Positions 42,090 to 64,000 of a DNA stretch of 64,000 nucleotides are shown here, piece by piece (position 1 is the stretch's first letter; every line of letters begins with the position of its first letter). The stretch lies in the NCBI RefSeq assembly GCF_964204865.1, contig NC_135264.1:13144001-13208000 (forward strand), in the 5' to 3' direction. The notes under the pieces are model-generated. The model was not told where the DNA came from, did not search any database, and was given only the letters and a program-made list of their open reading frames with translations. The position numbers and the translations under genes were made by a program. This stretch comes from Styela clava (lineage: Eukaryota).

Positions 42090-42460
42090 ATCTATTCGAT
42101 AAACCCACATTCAAGGCGCGTGTCCAGTTGCCGCGAATCGGACGATAATAAAATCTTTATCGGTAAATCGTAATCAAAAGTTTTTGTGCCATGATTAAAT
42201 GCTATATTAGACGAGGCCACAACTTTGTGATTTATGTTTGATAATCAGTAATTTATTGGTATGATCAAACAATGTTATCATAGATAAGTTTTATCAAATT
42301 AGAACCGAGTCGCTTATCTACAAAGTAACTATTTCTATATATTTATTATCAGTAACTATACTATAAATTACTTATCTTAATTGTCTCTATGGCATTGATA
42401 ATTTGAAACAACCGTTTAAAAATAGTGCGCTTATCTGCACGCTAATGCCATATAAATAGA
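42090..42460 (+). promoter_or_regulatory. GATA-site-rich proximal enhancer and TATA box of Not-like copy 1 (paralogous at 45010-45280 and 46960-47280)
   Basis: About 12 GATAA/TTATC motifs in ~350 bp, largely retained in the duplicates; TATAAATA at 42451 and 45269. Confidence 0.6.
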
Positions 42461-42514
42461 CCGTTACCCTTCAAGATTTCATTTACGTTACTAAACGATA
42501 TCAAAATATACAAA

Positions 42515-43501
42515 ATGATTTCTTACCGACATCCTTACCAAGCTGTCTCGAATGCTCAATGGACGCCATTTCTTCGTTTCAATTACGCAGGAAGTTCAGA
42601 TTTAGAAGAAATTACAACAAAGAAGAGGAAATTTTCATCAAATGAAGGTTATACGAAGGTCGCAATTGTAAATCAGAAGACACAAGATAGAAAAATTCTC
42701 GACTCTTCGAAGTCTTCCGAACAGGTGGAAGAAAAATTGAATAACCGACAAAAGAAAACGAAAACTCCTTTTACCATAGACGCATTACTGGGACATTCGA
42801 CCGAAAGCCCAAGCAAAAAAAGAAAACTTGAACTTCCGCAGTCAATAAAAATCAAAGATGATTCATTCGACTCTGGTTTTGCATCGTCTGGAGAAAACGA
42901 CGAATCAATTCTTGCATGTCCTGTTGCAAATGACAGTGGAATTTGTGTCAATGATTCACGAGAAAAATTTGGTCAAATTCATTCTATGACAACAGACTTA
43001 CCTCAACCTAAAGTAAAAAATAATCGACAATTACCGCACCCAGAAAGCTATAGTGGTTTATATATTCCTGTCAACGATGTATATTATTTACATTCCGGAT
43101 TACACCACTTTGTGCAGCAAAATTGGTTGTATCACAACCAACATGCAATATCGTATGCACCGATTGAGACTGCAGCTTTCGTTGGTCAAGGCAATACCTA
43201 CTCAAATATGTGTTCACATTCACCGAAACACGGATCTCAAAAAACAGAAAAGACTAAACGAACGAGAACTACATTTACTCAAAAACAATTAGAATATTTG
43301 GAAAGCGAGTTTAACAATCAACAATACATGGTTGGAATTGAAAGACGAGCACTTGCCAAAAAGCTCAGACTCACAGATGCGCAAGTAAAAGTTTGGTTTC
43401 AAAATAGAAGAATCAGATATAGGAATGAAAAGAAGCGCGAACCCGAAGAAGAAACCAACAAACTGGACATTCTCAAACGAGAAGCGATCGGAAAATGCTA
43501 A
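42515..43501 (+). CDS. Not: Not/NOTO-like homeobox protein, copy 1 (intronless)
   Basis: Homeodomain KRTRTTFTQKQLEYLESEFNNQQYMVGIERRALAKKLRLTDAQVKVWFQNRRIRYR; QQYMVG.ER and QVKVWFQNRRI are Not-class features. Also has an eh1 motif (PFTIDALL), a TATA box and AATAAA. Confidence 0.88.
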   Translation: MISYRHPYQAVSNAQWTPFLRFNYAGSSDLEEITTKKRKFSSNEGYTKVAIVNQKTQDRKILDSSKSSEQVEEKLNNRQKKTKTPFTIDALLGHSTESPSKKRKLELPQSIKIKDDSFDSGFASSGENDESILACPVANDSGICVNDSREKFGQIHSMTTDLPQPKVKNNRQLPHPESYSGLYIPVNDVYYLHSGLHHFVQQNWLYHNQHAISYAPIETAAFVGQGNTYSNMCSHSPKHGSQKTEKTKRTRTTFTQKQLEYLESEFNNQQYMVGIERRALAKKLRLTDAQVKVWFQNRRIRYRNEKKREPEEETNKLDILKREAIGKC

Positions 43502-45333
43502 GATTTCTTATGTTTATAGATTGAGTTCCATAGTTTCCTATAGAGGTTGTCTTTATAATAATTGTTCATTAAAAGTTTCATGAAATAAAGTTTTCAATAA
43601 AATATATCAAAATATTTGTTCCATTTTGTTGTTAAGTATAGTGTATGTGTAAACAGCTTAATTCCGTTAGATACACGCTGAATGACTAATTTCAAAATTA
43701 TTAACAGAATGAAGAATATTTATTTCGATGATGCTCTCGTCTTGAGGTTAGGGCTGGGCATTTTCGAATACCTGATGATTTTCGAATCGAATTGAATACT
43801 TTTTCGGATTGAATCTCGATTACGTGGAAGATATGTAATTTTATGTGATTTTCTTATTGTAACGAGTTCTCCAGACACGTAAAATACTGAAAACAAAAAA
43901 ATCTATTACTCAGTTAGTCCGCCTCGACCTATGGCGGAAAAAAAGCAAAATGACAACGATTCAATATTCTCATTGGGACTGATTCGATTCGGAATGCCCA
44001 TTCATACCTGAGATACACAAACTTTTGATTGCTTCCAAAGGGATCGATTGTAGTTAAACAGCTCTTCTTAATTCCTGAGAACTCGGGCTCGACAAACTTT
44101 CTTTACTTTCGAGACCAACCCAAACATCGTTCTATCTCCTTCTTATCTACTTTTCAATCGTTTTATCTGATAGCTGATAAAAGTTAGTTTAAGTTCAGGC
44201 ACGCCAGATCATTTCCATTCACTAATTTGCGGATTTGTTTATTAAAAATACCTAGTTTTTAGCCATTAACTAGCAAATAAAATTTTCATTCCATTTTTTG
44301 AAACATATGGGTCTACGAGATGAAGATAGTGAAAAAATATAATACGGTGAAAACTCTTCAATTAGTCTGAAAGGAATTTTAAATTTGGACAAATTCATCC
44401 ATTCAATCCTATTTCATTTTTATTCTTTTAAAGTTTTCGAACGATAAGAATTTGCGACCAGAATTAATGACCTGACAAAACAATTAAACAAATACACATC
44501 AGTTTTTCAACATTTTAAATCTGGAACAACCCTTCGAAATTCCGAAAACGACTAAAAAATGAATAATGTTTCAAACTTGAATGACTGTACATTGTCAAAC
44601 GGTAATTAAATTTCATCCTATGGCTACATTATTCAGGGTTGATCAGACCCTTGCAATTTCATTCCGTTAGAGCAGAAAACTTGTTAGCCCAGAATCAATA
44701 TTGAAAATTGCGGCAACGCACACATTTTTATGATTTATTTATTTTATTTCTTAGAAATTGAATAGATAAAACAACAATATTGTTCCACAAATATGGGCAT
44801 GATGTGTCTGGTGAAATTTTGTACAAGTACCCGCGCCTACAAGAAGCAAAAGATATATATACTTACATTCGAGTAATATATATATATATATATAGCTTCA
44901 ATGCTATTAATGCATCGATGCTTAATTTTAACTCGAGTAAAAATATACGGCTCGTCATAAATATGGTTCTCAGCATATACATGGACGTCGTTTTTCTTGT
45001 TTTACATTGATGATTTGCTATATCGGACGAGGCTAAAACTTTTGTGATTTATGTTGGATATCAGTAATTTGTTGAGATGATTAAACGTAATTATGTTATC
45101 GTAGATAAGTTTTATTATATTAGAACCGATTCGCTTATCTATAAAGTAACTATTTTTATATATCATCCGTATAACCAAACGCGTGCGATTTATCTTAATT
45201 GACTCTATAACATTGATAAGATGAAATAACCATTTAAAAATATTGCGTTTATCAGCAAGCTAATTCCATATAAATACACCGGCTATTCTGAAACATTTCA
45301 TTAACAATATTAAACGATATCAAGATATACAAA

Positions 45334-46326
45334 ATGATTTCTTACCGCCATCCTCACCAAGCTGTCTCCAATGCTCAATGGACGCCATTTCTTCGTTTTA
45401 ATTATGCAGGAAGCTCGGATTTAGAAGAAATTACAATAAAGAAGAGGAAATTTTCATCAAATGAAGGTTCGGGATTTACGAAAGTTGCAGTTGTAAATAA
45501 GGAGACACAAGTTACAAAACTTCTCGACTTTTCGAAGTTTCCCGAACAGGTGGAAGAAAAAATAAATAACCGACAAAGGAAAACGAAAAGTACTCTTTTC
45601 GCCATAGACGAAATACTGCGACATTCGACCGAAAGCCCAAGTAAAAAGAGAAGACTTGAACTTCCGCAGTCATCTAAAACCAAAGATGATTCATTCGACT
45701 CTGGTTTTGCATCGTCTGGAGAAAACGACGAATCGATTATTTCATGTCCTGGTGCAAATGACAGTGGAATTTGTGTCAATGATTCACGAGAAAAATTTGG
45801 TCAAATTCATTCTATGATAACAGACTTCCCTCAACCTAAAGTAAGAAATATTCGACAATTACCGCATCCAGAAAGCTATAGTGGTTTATATATTCCTGTC
45901 AATGATGCATATTATTTACATTCCGGATTACACCACTTTGTGCAGCAAAATTGGATGTATCACAACCAACATGCGATATCGTATGCTCCTATTGAGACTG
46001 CATCTTTCGTTGGTCAAGGCAATACTCACTCAAATATGTGTTCACATTCACCGAAACACCGATCTCAAAAAACAGAAAAGACTAAACGAACAAGAACTAC
46101 ATTTACTCAAAAACAATTGGAACGTTTGGAAATTGAATTCAGCAATCATCAATACATGGTTGGAATTGAAAGACGAACACTTGCTAAAAAACTCAGACTG
46201 ACAGATGCGCAAGTGAAAGTTTGGTTTCAAAACAGAAGAATTAGGTATAGGAATGAGAAGAAGCGCGAACCCGAAGAAGAAACCAACAAACTGGACATTC
46301 TCAAACGCGAAGCAATCGGAAAATGA
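45334..46326 (+). CDS. Not: Not/NOTO-like homeobox protein, copy 2 (tandem duplicate, intronless)
   Basis: Highly similar to copy 1 over its full length; intact ORF; homeodomain QLERLEIEFSNHQYMVGIERRTL...WFQNRRI. Confidence 0.88.
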   Translation: MISYRHPHQAVSNAQWTPFLRFNYAGSSDLEEITIKKRKFSSNEGSGFTKVAVVNKETQVTKLLDFSKFPEQVEEKINNRQRKTKSTLFAIDEILRHSTESPSKKRRLELPQSSKTKDDSFDSGFASSGENDESIISCPGANDSGICVNDSREKFGQIHSMITDFPQPKVRNIRQLPHPESYSGLYIPVNDAYYLHSGLHHFVQQNWMYHNQHAISYAPIETASFVGQGNTHSNMCSHSPKHRSQKTEKTKRTRTTFTQKQLERLEIEFSNHQYMVGIERRTLAKKLRLTDAQVKVWFQNRRIRYRNEKKREPEEETNKLDILKREAIGK

Positions 46327-46774: not shown

Positions 46775-48067
46775 TTCTTGAAATTTACTTCTGTGTTTCT
46801 CCAGATTTTGTTTTTACTTTAAAAATATACGGCTTGTCATAAATGCGGTTGTGGTCAAACACAGCAGAGATTTTACTCCGTTGTTTTCCTTATTTTATTG
46901 AGGAAAATATTCGAGGTATTTTGATGGATATTGATCGTTCCAACGCGTATGATTAGAAATTTATATCTATTCGATAAACAATTGTAAATTTGGTTGAAAT
47001 TGATATTACAGTGGGGAAAATAAACTCCTAAAAAATAGATTAAGAACTTCAATTTAGGGCGCGTGTCCAGTTGCCACACGTCAGACGATAATCAAATCTT
47101 ATCGGTAAATTCTAATCAAATGTTTTTGTGCCTTGATGAGATGCTATATCAGATGAGGCTTAAACTTTTGTGATTGATGTCGGATAATCAGTAATTTTAT
47201 TGATATAATCAAACGTAATTATGATATCGTAGATAAGTTTTATCACAATAGAACCGATTCGCTTATCTACAAAGATTTATATATTATTATTATTTCTTAG
47301 TTTCTTTTTTATGTTATGAATTTAACCTTCTGGCGACCGGGAACATTCCAAGTTTCTGAGTTTATGCCAAGGTCATCAATTGATAGAAAGTACTTTACGT
47401 AAGATGTGAGCTGTTCCAAGAAGAACGGTGCAAAAAAATTGGATGTATCACAACCAACATGCGATAAAGTATGCACCGCTTAAGACCACAGCTTTCGTTG
47501 GTCAGAGTGAGGGCTGGGCATTTCGAATCGAATATTCGAATCGAATCGAATAGTAAATTATTCGAATCGGTTCAAAGCTAAATTTCGAATCACCGCCATC
47601 TTGTTTTTTTGTTTCCGCCAATGATCGAGGTGAATTCCTTAATTTTTTTTTCATTGAAGTCATATTTTTTCAACGCAATTCTAACATATGACTATTTTCT
47701 GTAGTGAGTTATTGTTTAAGTGTTTTTGTTATTGTGTGTGAACGCTCACAATCTATCTGAGTGATGTATTCTATGTCTTCAGTAATTTATTTGTTAGAAG
47801 ACCAATTACTATAAAAAAAAGTCGCTTACAATTATATATTTCCAAGTATTCAAGATTCGATTTGATTCGAAAAAAATTATTCGATTCGATTCTGAAATCA
47901 CAAGATATTCGAAAATGCCCAGCCCTAGTCAGAGTAATACTCACTCAAGTATATATGTGTGAACAAGAACTACATTTACTCAAAAACAATTACAATATTT
48001 GGGAAGCGAGTTCCACAATCAACAATACATGGTTGGAATTGAGAGACGAACACTTGCTATAAAACTC
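46775..48067 (+). pseudogene. Third Not-like copy: duplicated upstream region plus deleted, MITE-interrupted CDS fragments (47437-47508, 47936-48067)
   Basis: 46775-47275 matches 41894-42325. 47437ff encodes NWMYHNQHAIKYAPLKTTAFVGQ and 47962ff encodes TRTTFTQKQLQYLGSEFHNQQYMVGIERRTLAIKL. Lacks the ATG region and helix 3. Confidence 0.9.
47509..47927. mobile_element. hAT-like MITE inserted in the Not pseudogene
   Basis: TIR (g)agggctgggcattt / aaatgcccagcccta; TSD gtcagagt; ttcgaatcga subterminal repeats. Older relatives lie at ~31165-31565, 40501-40870 and 43750-44005. Confidence 0.9.
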
Positions 48068-48293
48068 GGTACTCCCGAAGTGTGTAAACCAAGATGGCAG
48101 ACACCGGGAAGTACCAGCTTAGGGTTATGCCATAATTTCAGCTACAAATACTAACGGAGTCAATTGGCTAGTCCTCCAACTCGTAATAGAACTGAAATAA
48201 GGAAAATTGGAATAAAAATATGGCCTAACCCTACCCTGGTACACATACTACGTTTCGGTGTCCGCCATCTTGGTTCATATATTTCGGGATTAC
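48068..48293. mobile_element. Merlin-like MITE truncating the Not pseudogene homeobox
   Basis: ggtactcccgaagtgtgtaaaccaagatggcagacaccgg ... cggtgtccgccatcttggttcatatatttcggga; same family as 59177-59411. Confidence 0.8.
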
Positions 48294-48599
48294 TAATATT
48301 TCGACTTGGCTTTAGATCTCAAAAAGGACCTTGGCTCTCGGTCCTTCACAGATTCGAAATTTCAAGAATTCAAAATTTTACAACATATTTTCTTTATTTT
48401 CTTTATTTTCTTCCCTCGAACCATGTCGAAATAAGATAAACAGAACGCGTTCGCTGATAACTTGATATCCCAGGAACGGGTTCGGACCAACTTACCAGTA
48501 CGAACCCCCTCAATGCATTTTAAACCAGTAACAGCATTTCAGATAGTTCACGAAAATTGTGAGGTTGCGCAGAATACGGTATTGTGACATATCAAATAT

Positions 48600-51500
48600 T
48601 GTGAAATAACATGTTTCATCATTATTCTCTTTGTCTCGTCTTTTTCTGGCGTCACCTGGTCATGTGATTCCTAATAACCAATAAAAGGCAACTTCTCTTC
48701 CTCCTCCGTCGTCTTTGTTTCTTTAATATGTTTAAACTTTTTTCTTGCCACGTCAAAACTTTGTATGCGCAGTTGCAGTCTTTCAAATAGGACGCCGTTG
48801 GGTAAGCACGTTTTTTTATTTTTTTCAGTTTGTACATTTAACTTCGATAATCTTGTGTTTTTGCGTTTATATTTACATACAGATTTATTTATACTTAACT
48901 CAAACTTGAAAATATTGCCTCGAATGTCTGCACAAAAAAGGATCCATCGCCAGTTCTGATTAGAAACGAAAACGGAAGATGATGCAATGATTACTAGCTA
49001 AAGTTGAACTTAATCATTCAGTTAGGCATAATACTAAAGTCTAGGTTGGTGTGTAATTATTGAATCAAAGACGAAGACAACGACAAATGCAGACGATTAA
49101 GAACAATAATATGTACAAGTTAGTACATAGGATTATAAGACGCGAATTAAAATTTACGATTTAGGTTTAATCCGGGTATATTAATCATCCTGTTTTTTTG
49201 CCTTCAGTATTGTATATATTATATTCCTAAAATCATATCTGATGTATTGTTGTTTCGCTCGTATTTTTGCAAACTGACTGGATGCAACCAATCTTCAAAT
49301 GTTGACATCGATAACTATTGGAGCGGAACAAGAAATCCGATTCGATTAAAATCAGACGTCACACTTCTCTTTGTTTCTTTATTATTTTCAGCCTTTTTTG
49401 ACACGTAAAAATTTTGTCTTGGACCGACCAGTCTTTTTAAATTGGCGCCGTAGGTGAGTGCTTTTTGAATTGTTTTGTGTGAATCGGCGTGTCGCTAATA
49501 TTCTCAAATTACAGCACTTTAGTTCACTTTTAATTCAAGTTTTTTTGCAGTTATGTTGATAAAGTTAACTATAAAGTTAAACTTGGCCTAAAATTATTAA
49601 TTAATTTAAATATCTACGAACTGGCAGTTGGATTACAAGACTTGTGAATGTGGAAATTGAAACGATGGTTGGTGAGAAGAACCTGCGAGGGCGCGGACAG
49701 AAACAAAGTGGCGCGATCATGGATTATTAAGGTAACTGTTCATTGTTAACGGGTAACACTAGAGGAAAAACCTAGATCTAAGCTTAAGTGTTAAAGTTCC
49801 CTCGTCCTTAAGTTTTTCTGTCGTTATATATCTCTAAATAGCAGGATTTTAAATACATATGAATGGAGAGTTAAAGGCTGCCCAGGTGCTATACAACCGC
49901 TATTTGTGTAAATTTATATTAAGTCTTAAATTGAACCAACCAACCAATCTGTTTTTAATATCTTGTTTTGTTTATGTAGTCAAGACGTGAACAAGCTTCG
50001 CATGTTGACATTGGAGACTGGTGTGAGGCAGGAACTGCGAATAGTTAAACCAAGCATTATATTAACATTTGTGACTGCATCTATGTTGAATCACAACTGC
50101 TAAGCAGGTATTAATTCTGAATAAAATATTTTGTTCATTTTTCTTGGCACGTTAGATGTTTACGTTTGGTAACGTTATTTTTATGTATGTGTGTTGCGTT
50201 CCTCTTTGTTCAAAAAAAAATTTTTCTTGCAGCTTATTTCTAATTCTTTAAGTTTTACTATTGCAGTTAGGCTAAACTTAGGCTTTAATTTATTGGTTCA
50301 AATATCTACGTAACGAAAATGAGACTTCAAATACCGGAGTTGTTGGAGTAAACGAAAACGGATGGTGTCTCCATTACCAGCCAAAGTTAAACATATTCAG
50401 GTATGCTATACCATTACCTTAATATAACGGTTGGTATCTAATTCTTGAATCGAGGACACACAGGGGACGCCACCACGGATTATTAAGGTGAACTGTTAAT
50501 TTGCTTCGAGCCATAAGTGCATGAGCGTAGGCTAATATAGTATAATATACATTTTGGCTATAGTATAATATACAAACTTGGCCAAGTGTTATGATTTCGT
50601 CAGTGTCGTATTGTCATCTCATATACATATTCCTTAAAACAGAACTCTAAATGCATACATACACGGAGTTTTCATTGTACTGGCTCACGCGTGGAACAGC
50701 GTACCCTTGCTGCAGGTGAATCCAAATTTACATTTTGAATAGATTTCCAATATGCCAAATACGACTGGATGAAAGACGTCGATGAACATCGAATTTGGCA
50801 CAAATTTTCGGGCTATTTCACAGGTTATATTTTTGTTTGAAAACTTTCTTCAATTCTATAACGATGAACTAATTTTTAATCAGGCTTCTCAAAACTGCTT
50901 TCTCGGTGCGCCGTTTTCTCGGTGCGTCACGGCGCAAGTATTTTCAAAGATGCCATCAACAGAAGTCTGTTATATTCCGCGTTCCATTCCGTTAATTATT
51001 TTAGGGTACCAGTGTGGTACACGATACTTCTGCATGATAGATGGTTGGCATCGAACAATGTGTTCCGATTCTGTCTGGCACCGTATTGTCTCTTCGTAAA
51101 TTTCTTCATACTAGAATCCTGATTAACTACATTTTTGTAGTCCTACATTACACTCCTCGCTGTGATAAACACTGCCAATACTAATCACTCTGTAATTTCT
51201 TTCAGCTCGTTGTACTTTAGTTTTAGTCTATATAATGTAACTTAGCTAAGTATTATGCTTTCGATCGTATTCATGCAAACTAGGACTCGGTATATAAACA
51301 AGCTGAGAATGTTGGCATCGTAAACTACTGGAGAAAATGCGGTTAGAGGAGCGTTGACTCGAGATCAGTAAGTAAGTAGATTCAGATTGGTATTTTTGAC
51401 TGTAGTTAAGTTAAAATTTTATTCTCCCATCACCTCCGCATTTCCTTTTCCTTATCAACCATTAAAATTATTTTTGTTGATAAACTTGAAAAGTCTTTAA

Positions 51501-51616
51501 TTGTAATTACACGCCTGTAGAAGGTGGGATGAAAGCACGACGTTGATATTGTGGCCATGGATGGCCGTGTGACGATTGAAGTTTATATGGACGGCAAGGT
51601 AAATTTTTATACGCTA
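48600..51616 (+). repeat. Degenerate tandem array (~0.7-kb period) of mini-exon-like units without a conserved ORF; candidate spliced non-coding locus or decayed gene
   Basis: Recurring motifs: ggattattaag|gt (49721, 50477); atgttg(a/g)cat..(a)act (49299, 50002, 51309); cag|tta..g.taaactt.g...aaatatctacg (49550, 50266); ttt(g/c)(a/c)cacgt.aaa...cagtcttt..aa...gcgccgt.g|gt (48745, 49398). Confidence 0.65.
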
Positions 51617-54600
51617 TATAGCCCTGGAGTATAGCATAAAAAGATTTAGGACTATTACTTCAAAGTTGCTATTATTTATAATAAAGATCGAGTTAAGTTC
51701 TAATTTATGCAGAGCGATTGTTCAAAACTTACGGAGAGGTAAAACCTATTTTAATGTTATAGGTTGCATCGACATGACTACTTGAAATATCGTTTCCAAT
51801 ATCAGATACTGGTGTTTACTGGTGTTTTATGCACCAGCCCATATCTTATTGTTTCATTGCCTCTTGTGGGCTCCAGTAACTAAGTTTAATTGGCAGATTT
51901 GACACGAAAGATAGTAACTAGCAGAGGTGTAACAGTCTTTACGAGAGTTGTTGGTTATAGCAGAAATATTTGTAAATTTAGAAGCGACAATTTCTTTCAT
52001 CACACCAAGGTATTGTTTCTATTTCTTCATAGAATCTGTAATGAATCGAATATTAGTTGGATAACAAGGTTGCCAATTACGTATAGATGTATATATACTT
52101 TAGGGCAGTGGTTCTGAAACGGTTGGGGGGAGGGGGGAAGTATTTGTAACATTTGACCTCGTCCGCCAAAATACGGATACACAAAATAATAAAAACGTCT
52201 GGTGGGGATAAAATATCGTACTTTGACATACATTCGGGTAATGATGAACCCTGAAACTAAATAAAACTCAAGATACAAAGTAGGGCCCTCATGAATTTCA
52301 AGTACCAAACTGGAGGTAACTATTTTTGTTTGCCTACTTTACATCAAGTTGTGTAAAGGGACGAAGCCTATAGGCAGGGGGCATATTCACTTGGCTAACA
52401 ATGACAGTCCCCAAATTTGTAATAAAATCAAAACAAGAAAATCGCAATGAAATTATGGTTCTAACCTGGTACGCATACTCGGGGAGTACCTAAAGCGGAC
52501 CCATAGATCACATGGCTGTAAAGAAAACAGATTCCCTGAAGCAAATTTTTTTGACATTTTTAGTGGCTAAAAACTTGTTGCTGTCGCTAGCAGGCTACTA
52601 CTAATATTCAAAAACATTTGTGGAATCTATGTAATTCATTATTCACTTCACTTGGTGTAATGTCATCAAGATAATAACTTGCTTGCGTGGTTCCCTGATC
52701 ACATCCCAAGTGATCTTGTAATCGTGAAAAACATACTAACGTTACTTCGTTTGCCTTCGCGTCCCAATATTTAGCTTAGCAGGACCACGGACTCATTAAA
52801 TTGAATAAAGTGTAAAACGCCGTAAAAGGAATAGGACCCACCAAATGGAAATATCTGTTGCAAGTGATTATTCAGTTGACAAGATTTCCTCGATCAACAT
52901 ATTGCAGTTTCAAGATACCTGAATATAAAAATAAAAACGAACTTGTATTTCATAGGCATTTACCTCTAACAATAGAATGGTTGTGAATTATATTATATAA
53001 CTGATCAAAAGTGAAGACAAAAGACGTACCTTTATATTCAATGCAGTGGTCTCAAAACCACGTTATTACGTTTTCATTCATTTCTCTTTTCTCTTTCCGG
53101 CCCTGTAATTAGATTAGAGATGTAAACCTAAATAAATGATTTTTGATTGTTCAGCGTTCAAAAGCATCCAGTTTACCGAATCGCCATTTATATACATGCA
53201 AACGCACGACAGGCTACAAATCTCGAGGAAGGTTTGGTTGTTTCAGCGTTTGGGAAACAGTATGTGAGAGAAGACCGAATATATATCATACGATGACAGT
53301 AGAAACTTAGCCGTAAATTAATGTCGAATAGAATATTAGCGTATAAAAATTTACCTTGCCGTCCATATAAACTTCAATCGTCACACGGCCATCCATGGCC
53401 ACAATATCAACGTCGTGCTTTCATCCCACCTTCTACAGGCGTGTAATTACAATTAAAGACTTTTCAAGTTTATCAACAAAAATAATTTTAATGGTTGATA
53501 AGGAAAAGGAAATGCGGAGGTGATGGGAGAATAAAATTTTAACTTAACTACAGTCAAAAATACCAATCTGAATCTACTTACTTACTGATCTCGAGTCAAC
53601 GCTCCTCTAACCGCATTTTCTCCAGTAGTTTACGATGCCAACATTCTCAGCTTGTTTATATACCGAGTCATAGTTTGCATGAATACGATCGAAAGCATAA
53701 TACTTAGCTAAGTTACATTATATAGACTAAAACTAAAGTACAACGAGCTGAAAGAAATTACAGAGTGATTAGTATTGGCAGTGTTTATCACAGCGAGGAG
53801 TGTAATGTAGGACTACAAAAATGTAGTTAATCAGGATTCTAGTATGAAGAAATTTACGAAGAGACAATACGGTGCCAGACAGAATCGGAACACATTGTTC
53901 GATGCCAACCATCTATCATGCAGAAGTATCGTGTACCACACTGGTACCCTAAAATAATTAACGGAATGGAACGCGGAATATAACAGACTTCTGTTGATGG
54001 CATCTTTGAAAATACTTGCGCCGTGACGCACCGAGAAAACGGCGCACCGAGAAAGCAGTTTTGAGAAGCCTGATTAAAAATTAGTTCATCGTTATAGAAT
54101 TGAAGAAAGTTTTCAAACAAAAATATAACCTGTGAAATAGCCCGAAAATTTGTGCCAAATTCGATGTTCATCGACGTCTTTCATCCAGTCGTATTTGGCA
54201 TATTGGAAATCTATTCAAAATGTAAATTTGGATTCACCTGCAGCAAGGGTACGCTGTTCCACGCGTGAGCCAGTACAATGAAAACTCCGTGTATGTATGC
54301 ATTTAGAGTTCTGTTTTAAGGAATATGTATATGAGATGACAATACGACACTGACGAAATCATAACACTTGGCCAAGTTTGTATATTATACTATAGCCAAA
54401 ATGTATATTATACTATATTAGCCTACGCTCATGCACTTATGGCTCGAAGCAAATTAACAGTTCACCTTAATAATCCGTGGTGGCGTCCCCTGTGTGTCCT
54501 CGATTCAAGAATTAGATACCAACCGTTATATTAAGGTAATGGTATAGCATACCTGAATATGTTTAACTTTGGCTGGTAATGGAGACACCATCCGTTTTCG

Positions 54601-54739
54601 TTTACTCCAACAACTCCGGTATTTGAAGTCTCATTTTCGTTACGTAGATATTTGAACCAATAAATTAAAGCCTAAGTTTAGCCTAACTGCAATAGTAAAA
54701 CTTAAAGAATTAGAAATAAGCTGCAAGAAAAATTTTTTT
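50214..54739. repeat. Inverted duplication A: 50214-51616 = reverse complement of 53337-54739
   Basis: Identical ORFs on opposite strands; coordinate sum is constant at 104953; one substitution seen (51283/53670). Confidence 0.97.
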
Positions 54740-56296
54740 ATAAAGAAAAAGCAATAACACAGACTAACAAAAAATAAACTGAAATACTTTTGAATGAAAA
54801 AACGCTTTTTTGTCTACGGTATACGAGTGGCCATACTTTGGACAAATGTTAGCAGTTCACAAATTATTGCATTCAATTTAAATGAGGCAGTTTGGGCAAA
54901 GTATTTCATAAAATTTATACAATTTGGATTGGGAGCAAATCACTTTATATATCAGTTGAACAAAGCAGGGCTGTGGAATCTGGGAAATTTACCTCATACT
55001 GTGCCGGTCCCTTTAAAAAAGACTCTTTGCTCACAAATGACTACTTCTTTAAGGACTCTTATCCGGCCCCCAACTGTCGGTTAAAAAATGTCGACTCTTA
55101 CTACACTTTATTCAATTTAATGAGTCCGTGGTCCTGCTAAGCTAAATATTGGGACGCGAAGGCAAACGAAGTAACGTTAGTATGTTTTTCACGATTACAA
55201 GATCACTTGGGATGTGATCAGGGAACCACGCAAGCAAGTTATTATCTTGATGACATTACACCAAGTGAAGTGAATAATGAATTACATAGATTCCACAAAT
55301 GTTTTTGAATATTAGTAGTAGCCTGCTAGCGACAGCAACAAGTTTTTAGCCACTAAAAATGTCAAAAAAATTTGCTTCAGGGAATCTGTTTTCTTTACAG
55401 CCATGTGATCTATGGGTCCGCTTTAGGTACTCCCCGAGTATGCGTACCAGGTTAGAACCATAATTTCATTGCGATTTTCTTGTTTTGATTTTATTACAAA
55501 TTTGGGGACTGTCATTGTTAGCCAAGTGAATATGCCCACTGCCTATAGGCTTCGTCCCTTTACACAACTTGATGTAAAGTAGGCAAACAAAAATAGTTAC
55601 CTCCAGTTTGGTACTTGAAATTCATGAGGGCCCTACTTTGTATCTTGAGTTTTATTTAGTTTCAGGGTTCATCATTACCCGAATGTATGTCAAAGTACGA
55701 TATTTTATCCCCACCAGACGTTTTTATTATTTTGTGTATCCGTATTTTGGCGGACGAGGTCAAATGTTACAAATACTTCCCCCCTCCCCCCAACCGTTTC
55801 AGAACCACTGCCCTAAAGTATATATACATCTATACGTAATTGGCAACCTTGTTATCCAACTAATATTCGATTCATTACAGATTCTATGAAGAAATAGAAA
55901 CAATACCTTGGTGTGATGAAAGAAATTGTCGCTTCTAAATTTACAAATATTTCTGCTATAACCAACAACTCTCGTAAAGACTGTTACACCTCTGCTAGTT
56001 ACTATCTTTCGTGTCAAATCTGCCAATTAAACTTAGTTACTGGAGCCCACAAGAGGCAATGAAACAATAAGATATGGGCTGGTGCATAAAACACCAGTAA
56101 ACACCAGTATCTGATATTGGAAACGATATTTCAAGTAGTCATGTCGATGCAACCTATAACATTAAAATAGGTTTTACCTCTCCGTAAGTTTTGAACAATC
56201 GCTCTGCATAAATTAGAACTTAACTCGATCTTTATTATAAATAATAGCAACTTTGAAGTAATAGTCCTAAATCTTTTTATGCTATACTCCAGGGCT
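51620..56296. repeat. Inverted duplication B: 51620-52814 = reverse complement of 55102-56296
   Basis: Identical ORFs on opposite strands; coordinate sum 107916; one substitution seen near 52377/55539. Confidence 0.97.
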
Positions 56297-57388
56297 CCTC
56301 AACTATTTTTACCGAAGATCCGCATATAAAATTCAAAAATATTTGGGTCCAGTCTTTCCAGAAATTATATTTCGTTATCCTTAAACACGCACTTTCTCGG
56401 TCAACTAATGATTATTAGCTAATCAAGATTGTTTGTTATAGCCTTATAGTTCTTTTCATATATATTTAAATCTATAAAATTGATGTTAGAAAAGGAAACT
56501 TCAAAAGTGGGGCTAATGATCCAAAATAAAGAATTAGGCGCGGTCCTAATCGAATACCCGGAAGGTCCGGATGCGGATCGCGGCCCGTTAGTTGAGTAGC
56601 TCTGCTATACTCTATGCCCAACATATGTAAACTACGGCCCGTGGGCCAAATCCGGCCTATTGAGGTGATTCAATCTGGACCGCCTGATGCTGCCCCAACC
56701 AAACTAAAACCGAAATTCGATTTTTTAGTTGAAAATAATTCATAGGAATTTGTTGGGAATGCGAATAAAAGACTTATTTTCCACTTTTGCTTTTGTAACA
56801 CTGTGAATATTGTTCCTAAAATGTAACTTTTTCACGTCACACTTACATGGCCAGCAGGTCTAGGTGGGCACAATTGACTATAACCTGTCCTAGTTTAAAA
56901 AAAAAAAAACTTTCTCACCTCTGCGCTATGCAGTCGTGATTGATAGTGGAATTGGTGCCGGAGTCTATCACAGAATCTCGAGACTTGAATGCTCAATTAA
57001 ATGATAGTAAGAGTTGATGGCTGTAGTAAGAGTCGACATTTTTTAACCGACAGTTGGGGGCCGGATAAGAGTCCTTAAAGAAGTAGTCATTTGTGAGCAA
57101 AGAATCTTTTTTAAAGGGACCGGCACAGTATGAGGTAAATTTCCCAGATTCCACAGCCCTGCTTTGTTCAACTGATATATAACGTGATTTGCTCCCAATC
57201 CAAATTGTATAAATTTTATGAAATACTTTGCCCAAACTGCCTCATTTAAATTGAATGCAATAATTTGTGAACTGCTAACATTTGTCCAAAGTATGGCCAC
57301 TCGTATACCGTAGACAAAAAAGCGTTTTTTCATTCAAAAGTATTTCAGTTTATTTTTTGTTAGTCTGTGTTATTGCTTTTTCTTTATA
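54739..57388. repeat. Inverted duplication C: 54739-55105 = reverse complement of 57022-57388
   Basis: Near-identical ORFs (two differences: F/V, T/I); coordinate sum 112127. Confidence 0.97.
56290..56604. mobile_element. hAT MITE
   Basis: TIR cagggctcctcaacta / tagttgagtagctctg; TSD ctatactc. Confidence 0.88.
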
Positions 57389-57994
57389 TATTTTATATTT
57401 TTATATCGTTAATTTTTGTGTAATTGCATTTATTATGATACTGAATTTTTCAATTTTAACTCTTGCTTAAGCAATAAAATATTTTTAAAATCATATCTTG
57501 AGTCTTGTTGTAGTTAGGTTAATTAGGAACAGACTGAATAAAGTACGGGGGCTGAAGGGCAGGGTGAGCTGAAGCGGGCACGGGCGGGCCGGGCTGCCCG
57601 GGCGCGCGGCCCGAAAAATTCTGGAAAATTATCTTCGGCCAACGATAAATTATTATGTTTGGCCTTGTATGGCCCGGTAATAATGATCGAAGTTTTGGTA
57701 AAATTTATCTTTGGCCACACTTGGCCATAGATAAATAAAATTCTGCTAAATTATTATCTTCGGTCACGCTTGATCGACGATAATTTTTCAGATTTTCAAT
57801 GTTTTGAGGGTTAGACCTTGGATTTTTGTCGATTTCTCCTTTTTCATCGGATATTTGATATTTTTAACGGTTAGATCTTCGAACTTAGTCCGATTTCTGC
57901 TGTTTTCATCGGATATTTGGTGTCTTACATCCTTTTCTGACGTCGTCTTTATTCTTTTATTCGGTTATTTACGGATTTCGATTTAGAATTATTT

Positions 57995-58073
57995 TAAAAG
58001 TATGTATTGGAATCGAACTTAGGACTTGAGCTTAACTTGATATGCGATTTGCGCTCAACCACTACACCACAGC
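57995..58073 (-). ncRNA. tRNA-like Pol III cassette (A box, B box, T-run) in the left palindrome arm
   Basis: Minus strand: gctgTGGTGTAGTGGttgagcgc...GTTCGATTCCaatacatacTTTT; no complete cloverleaf. Confidence 0.4.
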
Positions 58074-58205
58074 AATGTCGATTCCTAAATGTTTCAACTC
58101 TAATACTTATCTATCAAAAGGTGTGGGCACGAATACTCCGGAATGAGGTTGATTACCCCCTTTGATAGATAAGTATTAGGGTTAAAACGTTTAGAAATCA
58201 ACATT

Positions 58206-58277
58206 GCTGTGGTCTAGTGGTTAAGCGCATTTCAAGCTATACTTATGTCTTAAGTTCGAATCCGTTGAAGTCTTTTT
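58206..58277 (+). ncRNA. tRNA-like Pol III cassette (A box, B box, T-run) in the right palindrome arm
   Basis: gctgTGGTCTAGTGGttaagcgc...GTTCGAATCCgttgaagtcTTTTT; no complete cloverleaf. Confidence 0.4.
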
Positions 58278-59176
58278 AGATAAACAGAAATATCGAAATC
58301 CGTAAATAAAAGTATGACACCAATTATTCGATGAAAACAGCAGAAAAGGACAAAATTCTAATGTCTAATCCTTGAAAATAACAAATATCCGATGAAAATG
58401 GCGAAATCGATAAAAATCCAAGGTCTAACCCTTAAAAAATTGAAAATCTGAGTAATTATCATCGATCAAGCGTGGCCAAAGATATTTATTTCGCAAAATT
58501 TTATTTATCTATGGCCAAGTGTGGCCAAAGATAAATTTCCCCAAAATTTGCGATATTATCTCTGGGCCATACATGTCCGAACATAATAATTCATCTTCGG
58601 CCGAGGATGATATTTCAGAATTTTCTGGGCGGCGCGCCCGCGGGCCCCGGCAGCCCGCACCGCCGCGCTCGCTCCAGCCCGCACCCTGGCCTGCCTGCCC
58701 TTGGGTCTGATTAGTTTAGTTTCTGCCTGTCAAACCTATACTCGCTGTAAGATTCAGGAATCATTTAAAATATTTTTATTACTCCGAGAACAAGTTACAG
58801 AAAAGAAATAAAAAATAAAAACACAAATCAAGTTCAAGATCACCAGAAAAACATCTCAATTTTGGCAAAAATTGATACAAATAATAAGTTGGAAAGGTCA
58901 TACATAACATATAGAGCATAATGAATTTATGATTTACCTATTCACAAAACATTGTCGTTAAAATAAGGGTTGACAATACAGTATTGGAAAAACACAGCAA
59001 AAATTATATTTAAAAAAGAATTGGTATTATTTATTTACATAATTGCAATAATGATAAAATTTTATTTTTACGAGATACAACGGGACATAACCGGGTCCGA
59101 TTAAAGTCTCCGACTAATAAATCGACTCCGCACTCAACTTTGATAACTTACAAGCGTTTAATCAATTTCAATTAAA

Positions 59177-59411
59177 GGTGCTCCCGAAGTATGCGAACCA
59201 AGATGGCGGACATCGGAACGTAACATGGGTAATAGGTTAGGGTTAGGCGATAATTTTTTTCCAATTTTCCTTATTTTAGTTTTATTATCAGTTCGACGAC
59301 TAGCCAAGAGCCTCCCGTAGTATTTATACCTAAAATTATGGCCTAACCCTAACCTAGTACACATATTACATTCCGATGTCCGCCATCTTGGTTCGCATAC
59401 TTGGGAGCCCC
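59177..59411. mobile_element. Complete Merlin-like MITE with long TIRs containing telomere-like and YY1-like motifs
   Basis: ggtgctcccgaagtatgcgaaccaagatggcggacatcggaa...ggttagggttagg / cctaaccctaacc...ttccgatgtccgccatcttggttcgcatacttgggagcccc; TSD caattaaa. Confidence 0.88.
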
Positions 59412-61499
59412 CAATTAAATATATATTTAAGATTAGTCAACTTGGGTTCTTTTTAGTTTTAAAATTTTAACCCCGGTTCCGAATTCAAAATCTATAAGAA
59501 TGTGTGGGTACCACAGCGCGGATTTAACTCCATTAGCATCTGAAGAGCATTGCTTTACATTTATTAAAATTCACACGGAGCTATTCACGAGGGATCATCA
59601 ATATATATGGCTATCTTTGGGATCTGTTAGAAAACGTTATTTATATAAATCATATGCAAATGCTTCACGTTGATCAGTATTTACTGACGGTTATGGAACT
59701 TATTACTAATTTATACAGATAAAGTACCTCTCGTCATTTCTGAGACAGCTTCTACTCTGAGATGAATCTTGGTTTTGAGTGATAAATTTAAATATTGGCC
59801 CAGCGAATACTGTCTGCTACTATGGAAGATTCGATACTGTCTGCTAGGGTTATGAATAAGTATTTTAAACATTAATTCAAAATAATTCAATTTTCAACAG
59901 GGTAGCAGCGTTTTTGCCACCTTTTCCGGTAAATGTCAATGCAGTTCTTAGTTCTTGAAACTAAAGATTCTCCGCGTATCAGTATAAGAATATAGCTATG
60001 TTGCATGATACTGGAATGGTTCACGCAAAATCACTCAGTTCAGTTTGCAGTTTCGAAGTTCGAAGAAATTTTTCTTCCATGATCAAGGTTTTTCTTTGTT
60101 GATATCTAAAATGAATTGGGGATTAGTTCGACACGTGATGAAAACTTGCACATTGTGTATATGAGAGCCGTCAAAACTGGGGATCCCTTCTCCTGTGCTA
60201 TGGGCCTCGAGAGGGATCAAACGGGGGTAGCGGTGAAACATGTCTGGGTATCGATTACGTTGAAGAAAAATATAAATTGAATGATGTGGAAGGTTCGTGC
60301 GTGCGACGTGTTACATTTTATGAACAATATTTACAGTGTTACAAAATGAAAGCCTCGTGCCCAAACTAAATATAAACGCGATCTTAACAAATTCCTTGAG
60401 ATATACAGCGAATCTTATTGCGGCATTTTTCCATGATGATAAATTACAACTCCGAAAGCAAGCAAGTTATGGAAGGAATGAGAAAAGTACAAATTGTAAT
60501 AAAAAATGATCCAACATTTGGTTTTGCATTGATTGTGGCAGCACCAGGCGGGCCAGATTAAAGTACTCAAAGTGACGTAATTGGCCCGCGGGCGCCGTAG
60601 TTTGACCATGTCATGTTTACGTTCCACTACGACCACGAGATGCGGTTTTTCGCAAGCTTTAATTGTTATGATTAAACTTACTTTCAGTAATGCAGCTCCA
60701 TGTGTCACAAACGCAGCTCAGTTATGTTCAAAGTCAGTGATATTTCTTCTTTTAGTTTATTATTTCTGAAACGAAATAAATTAGTTTTAGTCGACATATT
60801 TGAAAGCGGTGTTACAAAATACTAAAAATAAAACAAAAATACCATAAATTTTTATAGGAGTACCGAGAGCGTTATTAAAAAGCTATTTTAGACATATATA
60901 GTAGCAAACTATCTAATTATGGTGTACCAACGGAACACATTACGCTCAACCAACTACACCACAGTCACTGAAGCGGTCAGTTGTCCATTATTAAAATACG
61001 GCCATCCTGCAATCATTTTTCTCTCGAATTCGTAACAAGTCAATCAATATACCATTATAAATTTTACTCATTGCCATTTCATCGGAAGCTTATGGATATT
61101 TTTAAAAGAGACACCTTGAAATGGAAACTCAAATTTGATGGATTTGCGAGATCGCAAAAAATCCGATTAGTAGAGATTTCTGAGCAGTAGGTCTTTCATT
61201 TTGCCGCAACTCCTGAAACATTTTGAATGCTCGTATCCAAAATGTATTCATCCCAGAGTGGAGTAATCGCGGCAATTACTTGTGTGATACGGCAATACTC
61301 TAACCCCTCTTAAATTCATGGTGGCGTCCATAGGATCACTTATTCAAATGTTGAAATCCGGAGATACATTTCTGATTTCGATGTAAATTAGTGAATTAGA
61401 TTTATTGTAGTAAAATGAAGCATACCCAGTGCAAATATGTTCGTGATAAGTGATCACGTGTTTCTTCAATCTCGCTTGTGGCATTCTTGATAGGCCTAA

Positions 61500-64000
61500 A
61501 ATATAACAGAAACGTAATGTAACAATTACTTTAGTGATGTAAAAAGGTGAAAAATCCGCAAGAAATTCAGTGCTATGAATATAAAGCAATATTCTAAGCA
61601 ATCAAGATAAAAACGTGATACTAGCTTTTAAATACAATCGTAAAAATTATTGAATAACATACAATCTAGTCTGTTGTAACACACTGGCAACTAAATCATA
61701 CGTTACATACGCATACATTAATGCATTCGCGAAAGTAAAACCTTTGCATTACAATGAAGTTCTGATACGTTTTTTATCTTTCAATAAAATGAAAAAACAA
61801 ACCTGTCCGTTTATTGAAGCGACCACATTACCATCGAGTTGTGGCAATATCGAACATCAAACGTTAAGTTTCGACCACCTCTTTATACCTGTAATTAAAT
61901 TGTAACATCACGGGTAATTAATACTATTCACCAATGTTCAAATGGTGCCGAAACACCCGATATTAAATCTTAGATTAGACAAATTTATAAGCTATTCCAG
62001 TAATAGTAACAAGATCGCTTACACTTAAGAGTTTAAGAATTTTTCCGGATATAAAACGATATAAATATAATTACCTTTAATTTGCTGTTAAATGTTTCAA
62101 CGTGGAATGTGATGAGTTTTTTCACATGTTGGAGAGACTCCGCCTGAAATATAAGGTGGCAAAATCGTAAAAGAGTACAGCGGTAAATTTTTATTTTTGG
62201 TCGATAAACTCTGGTAACAAAACTGCTCAATAATAATGAATACTGAATATATTGAATTTTGTTCGAATTAAACATAATATTCATCATCAAGCGTCATAAA
62301 AAAAAAAACGGTAAAAATCTTTTTGGCACGCTGTTATCTTGAACTTTATTACCGTATAAAATTTAAGTTACCTCATTAATCCTCCTTGGTATCCTGAATG
62401 AAAATCATACATTTCAATAGTATTGAATAATCTTTGGTTTGTGTTCGTCGCATCTTGTTTTCGTTTCACATCTTCGGACTCCATTTTCAGTTTGTAGTAG
62501 TAATAAAAATTCAAAGAGTAATCTAGGTATAATTTTAGTCTATAGTATAATAATATAGCTGTAATATAAAACGTGATATTTTGTTAAATGGAGCCAAGTG
62601 TGAGAATATAACAAGACACAGATTCACAATTATTAGAAAAAAAATTTAATAAACCGTTGCTACCTGACGGTCGCGGTAATCTAAAAAAGACCGACGAGCA
62701 AGAAGTGCCCGCATAAGAATCGAGATTTAATCGCTTTTGGATCGAAAAGAAATATACAAAGACATGATATCATAATTCTTGGTTGTATTACAAATTTCTG
62801 TCAACCAAATGTCGTAAACTAATTTCATGATCGTAAAAATTCAAATAATCACCTTATTACTTCATTATCGCCTCCGTTCGCATATTCTTTCGTAGTCTGA
62901 TTCAGAAAATGAAAAGTAAAAATCTAAGAATTTGCTATCAGAATTCGCTCAAATGTTTCAGTAAAGGCCTGCTTAGTTCAATTCAACTATATTAGCATAT
63001 CTATAAAAAGATAAAAATTAGCTGCAAAATACAACGTTTCAAGTATACAGAAGAGTAAGTGAAACAGGGTAGAGTCGTAGACAATTAACAATAAGTAGAC
63101 GAAATAAGACGGCAAGAAAAAGTAAAGAAACACACAATTAAGATTTTGCAAAGAGCGTGACACCAATTAATGATTGCCGTTGAAATGAAAAAAAAATATT
63201 ACAATAAAATATGTTACCTTTGAAATAGCCAAACAAATTCTTTCTTCAAAGTTTATATTCAGCACATATAAAGTCATCGATTCCACAGTCTCAACTAAGT
63301 TCCCATTTTCTGTTGCTATCCAGCAGTTTCCGATATCAACATTAAGTTTGTTCACTCCAGTAAGTGCAAGGTACGAAAGCTGAGGCAGGGTGATTCGAAT
63401 ATGCAGAAACGTAAAAAAAAACGATAAATTTACAATTGAATCCCTATTCTATACTAAATTTACTTTCAACTACATTGGTTATATTAACTGTAAAAACTGA
63501 AGATATAAATGAAACGTAGTGTAACAATTTACTGGTGTAAAAAGGGGAAAAATCCGTAAGAATTATACGGTTACCTTATTAATCCTTGATCGACACCTTG
63601 GTTTGTGTTTATCACATCTGCTATTTTCGTTCCAATTTAAAAAAAAATCAGAACTCATCACGGCATTTCCAATTTGTAGTAATTTAAATTAGCAGTTATT
63701 TAGATCTAATTTTAATTTAGTGTAGCTGTAATAGATGTAAAGAACTTAAAATGTTAGGAAAATCAACGTGATGGGATATGAAAGGATGAGCGACACTCAG
63801 ATGCAGTCAACTCATTTAAAAAGCAAAATCAGAATAAATAATGAATTAACCGTTCTTACCTGACGATGGTGGCTTGTATCTAGTGGATTTTTTTTTGGCA
63901 CAGATCAAAAAAAGATGAGCCTGTAAAATACGTCAACATTTAACAAGTTTGGAATTTAAAATTATACTCAATACATGATATCACGATTCTTGGTTAGTAT
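61500..64000 (-). repeat. Second degenerate mini-exon array (~1.2-kb period), opposite orientation, running off the window end
   Basis: Minus-strand exon ends ggattaatgag|gt (62372), gaagtaataag|gt (62852) and ggattaataag|gt (63574); gtgaacaaacttaatgttgatatcggaaact (63355); tacctgacg..acatgatatca..attcttggtt repeated at 62661-62784 and 63857-63995. Confidence 0.6.

Follow-up and report, generated by a model that had tools for sequence, protein, structure and literature searches.

Is a locus of about 15 kb in Styela clava, in which two homologous arrays of exon-like modules converge on a central palindrome, an old hairpin locus built to produce double-stranded RNA (dsRNA)? An earlier note, made from the letters of a 64,000-nucleotide stretch of contig C19 (G000:C19:13144001-13208000, here called the window), had proposed such a single, mirror-symmetric locus at its right end. 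Our analysis points to another answer, to which we give roughly even chances: the locus is one copy of a mobile non-coding cassette, and its palindrome likely ends and separates the two transcripts rather than acting as a source of dsRNA. The existence of the family, its layout, its non-coding state, the motif anatomy of the palindrome arms, the homogenisation of these arms and the terminal repeats of a younger clade are established; the component parts are of known kinds and their combination is unusual.

A dispersed family of convergent cassettes

Genome searches with the 5' blocks of the family gave 63 candidates for the left block, 40 of which were scored, and 31 for the right block, which is of a different type. 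A pattern of 30 letters covering the first exon end and its donor matched the genome 41 times, and its reversed control 0 times. Fourteen of the 41 matches lie on C19, 13 of them inside 9.25-13.81 Mb; the window copy itself is too diverged to match and is not among the 41. The surroundings of scored matches and of further pattern matches were annotated with profiles, some copies being partial or incompletely covered. The idea of a unique locus is abandoned, as the window holds one of about 40 dispersed copies of a cassette of 10-19 kb. Two findings had been named in advance as ones that would speak against the mirror locus: that the units prove to be a dispersed repeat, which is largely what we observed, and that the similarity between the arrays does not exceed that of shuffled controls, which is not what we observed.

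In its usual layout the cassette comprises a left promoter, exon-like modules, the palindrome and a different right promoter facing inward. The order left-palindrome-right was found in 16 copies (in three of them a module is weak or one-armed), left-palindrome-left in two (the window copy and one other) and left-right without a palindrome match in three. Among the 18 copies in which left unit, palindrome and opposite promoter were all located, the opposite unit was unlike the left one in 16. Mirror homology is therefore a minority state in the family, and the window copy displays it because a second left-type unit replaces the usual right unit. The left and right promoter types share a 14-base T-rich motif, CCAAT and E-box-like motifs, and their profiles do not cross-match.

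Conservation is highest at the promoter, the first exon and its donor, while the remainder drifts; the first donor GT is kept in 15/15 older copies. Shared outer ends were looked for in the older copies and none were found. Viral and metagenome contigs yielded 0 matches, and no description of the family was found in the literature searched, which was covered mostly by title and lay apart from Repbase and the genome annotation. Two entire cassettes stand in tandem at G000:C17:5666580-5691650, with right flanks 98% alike.

Structure of the window copy

The window copy extends from window position 48.6 kb to about 67.5 kb, a total of about 19 kb, and contains the following array features (window positions):

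48604..48801, plus strand: left (L-type) 5' block with E-box-like and CCAAT motifs, a T-rich tract and module A; GT donor at 48802
48802..51598, plus strand: left array of decayed A-B-C tandem repeats and module D (51521-51598), non-coding, recognised by profile matches
61790..64000 and running on beyond the window, minus strand: right array of L-type modules, recognised by profile matches

The left 5' block is the best-conserved portion of the cassette family, and its motifs suggest that it serves as a promoter. Further donors of the left array are located at 49454, 49732 and 50488. Both arrays described in the earlier note are real; however, the right one does not end with the window but reaches about 67.5 kb, where it has a promoter-like block of its own (G000:C19:13211285-13211455, equivalent to window positions of about 67285-67455). 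It also holds a 1.9-kb tandem duplication (89-90%).

The motifs quoted as common to the two arrays were recovered, four of them at their exact places (49711 and 49987 on the plus strand, 63596 and 63355 on the minus strand). Homology between the arrays is clearly above chance, with a top score of 45 compared to maxima of 22 in 100 shuffles and of 21 in 34 control stretches from the window. Similarly, the pair 51521-51598 / 61805-61890 scored 74, against 41.7 ± 5.1 for shuffled sequences, a value matched by 0/1000 shuffles. The reported splice polarity was reproduced as well, since GT donors of the modules face the palindrome from both sides; going by sequence alone, the modules would be spliced exons.

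Identity between the two arrays amounts to 60-72%, their longest stretch without a mismatch measures 19 nt, and pairing runs reach only 27 bp when G-U pairs are allowed. The right 5' block is 69-73% like left blocks elsewhere in the genome and 64% like the left block of its own copy. A sister relationship of the two promoters of the window copy was not rejected (approximately unbiased test, p-AU 0.30), and for the other left-left copy such a relationship was rejected (p-AU 0.0005).

The family lacks a coding signal

The statement that about 15 kb contain no protein gene was upheld: Pfam was silent for 41 submitted open reading frames (ORFs) of at least 60 amino acids in 48.6-64 kb (41 of 47, six mirror copies being left out), and no domain was found in the 13 of 15 ORFs submitted from the part of the locus beyond the window, which brings the submission for the whole locus to 54 of 62, with eight left out. 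Codon-phase bias was detected in 4/173 overlapping windows of one full copy, compared to 11/20 in the neighbouring hydrolase gene that served as a positive control, and in 0/15 and 2/29 windows of the left and right arms of the window copy. Only 1161 of 6596 indels (18%) are multiples of three. By neither codon-phase bias nor frame-keeping indels does the cassette behave like a protein-coding gene family, no shared segment of the family contains a coding trace, and no long ORF is shared across the fetched copies, the long ORFs present being nested insertions. One copy carries such an insertion with a 681-codon open frame and piggyBac-type transposase domains (L079:5155-7197, minus strand). A short ORF spanning modules B and C was rejected as its frame is not maintained among copies.

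The units do not resemble host genes of microRNAs (miRNAs) or small nucleolar RNAs either, as neither a known RNA family nor a covarying hairpin was found in them. Rfam gave 0 matches at gathering score in the window. A hammerhead-like module B, noticed by eye in one copy, was lost in the alignment and had no Rfam match, and a hairpin of module A showed no covariation (two-sided change in 1/13 pairs, covariation term -0.16).

Motif anatomy and homogenisation of the palindrome

The palindrome reported at 57.5-58.8 kb is genuine. Its parts are:

57419..58836, unstranded: imperfect palindrome with 72% arm identity and an axis near 58140
57473..57478, plus strand: AATAAA that likely serves the left unit as poly(A) signal
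58775..58780, minus strand: AATAAA that likely serves the right unit as poly(A) signal
57620..57790, with a mirror copy at about 58450-58620, unstranded: iterated TTATC...GATAA, where invariant columns are densest across 10 old-type arms
57996..58069, minus strand: outward tRNA-like unit with A box 58059-58069, B box 58010-58018 and T run 57996-57999
58210..58277, plus strand: outward tRNA-like unit with A box 58210-58220, B box 58254-58262 and T run 58273-58277

Homologues of the palindrome occur at at least eight other places, mainly on the same contig, and the younger copies possess a distantly related form. From the outside to the inside, each arm contains AATAAA, a GC-rich block, the iterated TTATC...GATAA, 60-bp repeats and the pair of tRNA-like boxes. 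AATAAA is present in the outer 28-146 nt of 10/10 old-type arms, and its use as a poly(A) signal is predicted. The iterated GATAA motifs are likely protein-binding sites.

An A and B box pair faces outward in 19/22 arms and inward in 0/22, with 8/126 background windows scoring positive, and the spacing between the boxes is 44 nt in 10/11 positive old-type arms. Genome-wide, the box pattern had 17 matches, 14 of which lie within palindromes of the family (one assigned by inference). No tRNA gene was recognised: ARAGORN predicted 0 genes in 15 loci, and there was neither an Rfam tRNA match nor a cloverleaf. At G000:C1:8467504-8467922 (L169), outside the family by profile, two separate, near-identical units with tRNA-like boxes face each other.

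In the old-type palindromes (five copies), the two arms of one copy resemble each other in their private bases, 34 of which were shared over 5 within-copy pairs compared to 44 and 43 over 20 pairs each between copies. Per pair, sharing is about three times higher within a copy than between copies, no left-right signature is seen, and the within-copy arm clades are starred in 3/5 copies. The young-type palindromes (also five copies) show 0 bases private to a copy and 11 fixed left-right differences. Judged by these base patterns, homogenisation affected the arms of the older lineage, but not those of the younger.

A younger clade with terminal repeats

Copies located off C19 include a clade whose members are about 85-92% identical across more than 10 kb and show numerous internal deletions. 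Seven younger copies are bounded by terminal inverted repeats composed of subrepeats of about 30 nt, the left and right ends being slightly different, and all seven copies so labelled fall within one 14-row clade (support 99/98). A target duplication of 8-9 bp was found at two of the seven end pairs, one of which surrounds a span of 47.8 kb. Neither the surroundings of the window copy nor the C19 stretches fetched showed terminal repeats. Also, short elements exist that have both ends and lack the cassette, and a 550-bp piece of them is directly repeated on both flanks of the cassette, a combination that fits capture by two flanking elements.

The ends may belong to a superfamily that is Mutator-like (MULE), considering their repeats and the length of the duplication, or Zisupton-like, considering the 8-bp duplication. 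The MULE domain had 82 genome matches, none within a mapped element (flanks of only six were fetched), and PF02902, the Ulp1 domain that often accompanies KDZ transposases, had 38 matches, again none within a mapped element. The KDZ domain PF18758 gave 0 matches, but its controls were likewise silent, so that this result carries little weight.

The complete element at G000:C6:14920486-14933980 (L109, L110) has its cassette inverted relative to the terminal repeats when compared to the C16 copy. At G000:C2:20206651-20241300 one young copy has a truncated right end that lies within a tandem duplication (94-99%, units about 33.5 kb apart). Two terminal-repeat ends at G000:C14:3381984 and C14:3813625, about 430 kb apart, agree in both end and flank but are inverted relative to each other, which points to an inverted segmental duplication.

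A recent inverted insert in the window copy

Between the left array and the palindrome lies one further feature:

53337..56296, minus strand: inverted insert of three reversed templated pieces from 50214-51616, 57022-57388 and 51620-52814

It corresponds to the near-perfect inverted duplication of about 3 kb that had been placed between the arrays. The duplication exists; however, it is not centred on the palindrome and is instead an insert derived from the left half. Insert and source pieces show 4 differences in 2,965 bp, one junction has a 4-bp microhomology and one breakpoint falls within a 10-bp palindrome, from which we infer a recent template-switch accident of the window copy. In contigs from other runs labelled as this species, up to about 3% of letters deviate from the window, so that the insert probably arose later than common allelic variation, or else is an assembly error. 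The latter is unlikely in our judgement, even though the copies are 99.9% identical and all four sequencing runs show the insert's base at 51283, the sole difference in the largest piece: three ordered pieces, microhomology and a breakpoint in a short palindrome resemble template switching, and three additional differences separate the copies. The window base at 51283 may be a new mutation or a consensus error. Contig depth across the duplicated pieces is not doubled, although such depth is no copy number. Three presumed RNA runs covered introns and repeats like the fourth, had no listed splice joint in the arrays and were treated as DNA, uninformative on expression.

Since the insert is very recent, an old hairpin design is ruled out for it. 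Situated in the precursor of the left arm, it would give perfect dsRNA, and it is the sole long near-perfect duplex in the locus.

Proposed mechanism and alternative explanations

We propose that the two units are likely spliced genes of RNA polymerase II (Pol II) that are transcribed inward, and that the AATAAA at the outer margin of each arm would end the transcript of the corresponding unit. The back-to-back tRNA-like boxes, bound by TFIIIC or Pol III, would hold the units apart. Older copies would have spread chiefly via local duplication on one contig, with arms homogenised within each copy, and in the window copy a second left-type unit would have taken the place of the usual right one. 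Later, two short non-autonomous transposons would have come to flank one cassette, moving it as a composite element.

Several observations weigh against this proposal. Splice sites other than the first donor are not unusually conserved, with no acceptor AG reaching 93%, so that many copies may be dead. The ragged ends of the older copies give no sign of how they spread; among the young copies only two of seven end pairs carry a target duplication, one of them T-rich, and a transposase for the terminal ends was not found inside any element. With the sister relationship rejected in the other left-left copy, a single whole-arm fold-back does not explain both left-left copies. AATAAA occurs in 2/10 young-type arm extracts, which are too short for a fair comparison, and the box patterns are loose and picked once the alignment had been seen. 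Finally, read-through of the palindrome would yield a very stable hairpin.

The last point leads to the hairpin question. Transcribed through, the palindrome would fold with -718 kcal/mol, 567 of 728 aligned columns being paired, with runs of 42, 35, 23 and 22 bp. A long foldable inverted repeat, as expected of hairpin RNA (hpRNA) loci, is thus present, but selection for RNA pairing on one strand was not detected: mismatches compatible with G-U pairing number 262 versus 260 between the strands in nine copies, and this lack of strand bias weighs against selection on an RNA hairpin. As both arrays face inward, their own RNAs would be alike and not complementary. The weak miRNA matches that Rfam gave at the centre of the palindrome stay far under gathering score and are explained by its hairpin shape. 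Homologous non-coding convergent units around a foldable palindrome stand, whereas a unique old mirror locus built for dsRNA is not supported.

The family might nevertheless consist of source loci for small RNAs, resembling clusters of PIWI-interacting RNAs (piRNAs) or hpRNA loci, with dsRNA made by read-through or precursors made from transposon fragments. The stability of the palindrome fold and its perfect runs of Dicer length, the conservation peak at promoter, first exon and donor in an otherwise drifting cassette, and the numerous repeats inserted in cassettes would all fit; ascidian ovaries produce piRNA-like small RNAs of 26-30 nt with 1U, as an excerpt of PMC5897368 reports, and spliced multi-copy hpRNA loci are described for Drosophila (excerpt of PMC10317233). 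We consider it unlikely, however, as AATAAA precedes the duplex on both sides in all 10 old-type arms, G-U mismatches lack a strand bias, young copies have their 11 fixed left-right differences and no arm homogenisation, and arms are unlike outside the palindrome in most copies. Far less probable still is a single old mirror-symmetric locus whose symmetry is held by selection for pairing between the arrays. It would account for homologous and convergent arrays and for an inverted repeat pair, 56629-56827 / 60310-60603 (73-74%), that prolongs the symmetry around the palindrome, but it is largely refuted by the family matches and layout with their roughly 40 paralogues, by the right 5' block being nearer to other copies than to its own left arm, and by the short longest perfect run between the arrays. 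A head-to-head dimer of a linear hairpin-ended element was rejected as a general model, since most arms are unlike and one left-left copy has promoters that are no sisters.

For mobility, the cassette might be what is left inside a two-gene DNA transposon whose genes were convergent: promoters, untranslated exons and the shared terminator would have been kept, while the coding exons and, in older copies, the ends were lost. In two-gene transposons of the MuDR type the genes are convergent, as are the units of the cassette. MuDR has two ORFs according to an excerpt of PMC6446971, and the many internal deletions of the copies as well as the terminal repeats and target duplications of the young ones agree with such an origin. 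This, too, seems improbable to us, because shared segments hold no coding trace, no long ORF is shared and those found are nested insertions, empty terminal-repeat elements and direct repeats flanking the cassette indicate capture, and no terminal-repeat match was found in the C19 stretches covered. Somewhat less probable again would be a self-contained mobile module of ascidians for small or regulatory RNA with two convergent germline promoters, present at about 40 loci and later captured by transposons. Its palindrome would hold twin Pol III units and be restored from a single arm at the birth of each copy; if true, it would be a mobile piRNA or small interfering RNA (siRNA) cluster carrying its own boundary.

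Under the preferred reading, a mobile cassette with separated transcripts, an apparently unique hairpin locus becomes a mappable family of fixed anatomy. About 40 copies of varied age would form a natural series for the question of how convergent non-coding genes stay apart, of whether a chordate uses back-to-back tRNA-like boxes as boundaries, and of how palindrome arms shift from homogenised in older copies to diverging in younger ones. The family would also exemplify, for an animal, transposon-like ends that enclose a large non-coding cargo. Should the copies be silent, they constitute a large, apparently undescribed repeat family, mainly of annotation value.

Comparison with known systems

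Short interspersed elements (SINEs) derived from tRNAs begin with a tRNA-like head that contains A and B boxes and continue with unrelated sequence. The cassette arms share these boxes (19/22); unlike in SINEs, however, they are almost never solo and nearly always paired inside the cassette (14/17 pattern matches in family palindromes). Boundary elements IR-L and IR-R of fission yeast, as described in an excerpt of PMC7474672, resemble the palindrome in having B boxes for TFIIIC in inverted repeats, but these repeats flank a domain 20 kb apart, whereas the cassette boxes are back to back and accompanied by A boxes and T runs. B boxes in inverted repeats act as boundaries in fission yeast, and by analogy those of the cassette palindrome may do so.

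Drosophila hpRNA loci are like the cassette in having spliced non-coding units, an inverted repeat and multiple copies. In contrast to the cassette, where a predicted poly(A) signal comes ahead of the duplex on either side, they contain both arms in one transcript, and Dicer-dependent siRNAs have been shown for them (both points from an excerpt of PMC10317233).

Pack-MULEs and MULE/Rehavkus elements, as far as an excerpt of PMC6446971 describes them, are non-autonomous, have long terminal inverted repeats with subrepeats and carry cargo, like the younger clade, and their target duplications of 8-11 bp include the length found at two of our seven end pairs. However, the cargo here is an entire non-coding two-unit cassette and no host gene fragments, unlike in Pack-MULEs, the shared interior being non-coding. 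In addition, the two ends of the younger clade differ in their last bases, no partner transposase was found and the window copy is without terminal repeats. Zisupton elements have terminal inverted repeats and 8-bp duplications (excerpt of PMC12730594), the 8-bp duplication and large size being common to the younger clade; in contrast, no KDZ-type or Ulp1-like ORF was found in any cassette copy, although the KDZ search was silent everywhere and says little.

Inserted repeats and neighbouring genes

Other repeats have entered the locus:

59157..59430, unstranded: inserted high-copy palindromic repeat resembling a miniature inverted-repeat transposable element (MITE), with many matches at unrelated loci and a relative at 48058-48308
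52260-52490, 56300-56870 and 60310-60617: further repeats with matches at unrelated loci

The locus sits between tandem homeobox genes and a hydrolase gene. Two homeobox ORFs in tandem on the plus strand (window 42446-43501 and 45292-46326) have 344-351 codons and no stops, and a third homeobox piece (window 47428-48067, plus strand) is a broken fragment interrupted by repeats. On the other side, an alpha/beta hydrolase gene (L007:5651-7373; G000:C19:13212651-13214373, plus strand) is directed away from the right promoter, which may be bidirectional. Two more left-type promoters of C19, at about 13.81 and 18.62 Mb, also have pieces homologous to the hydrolase upstream of them, suggesting that promoter and gene pieces were duplicated together.

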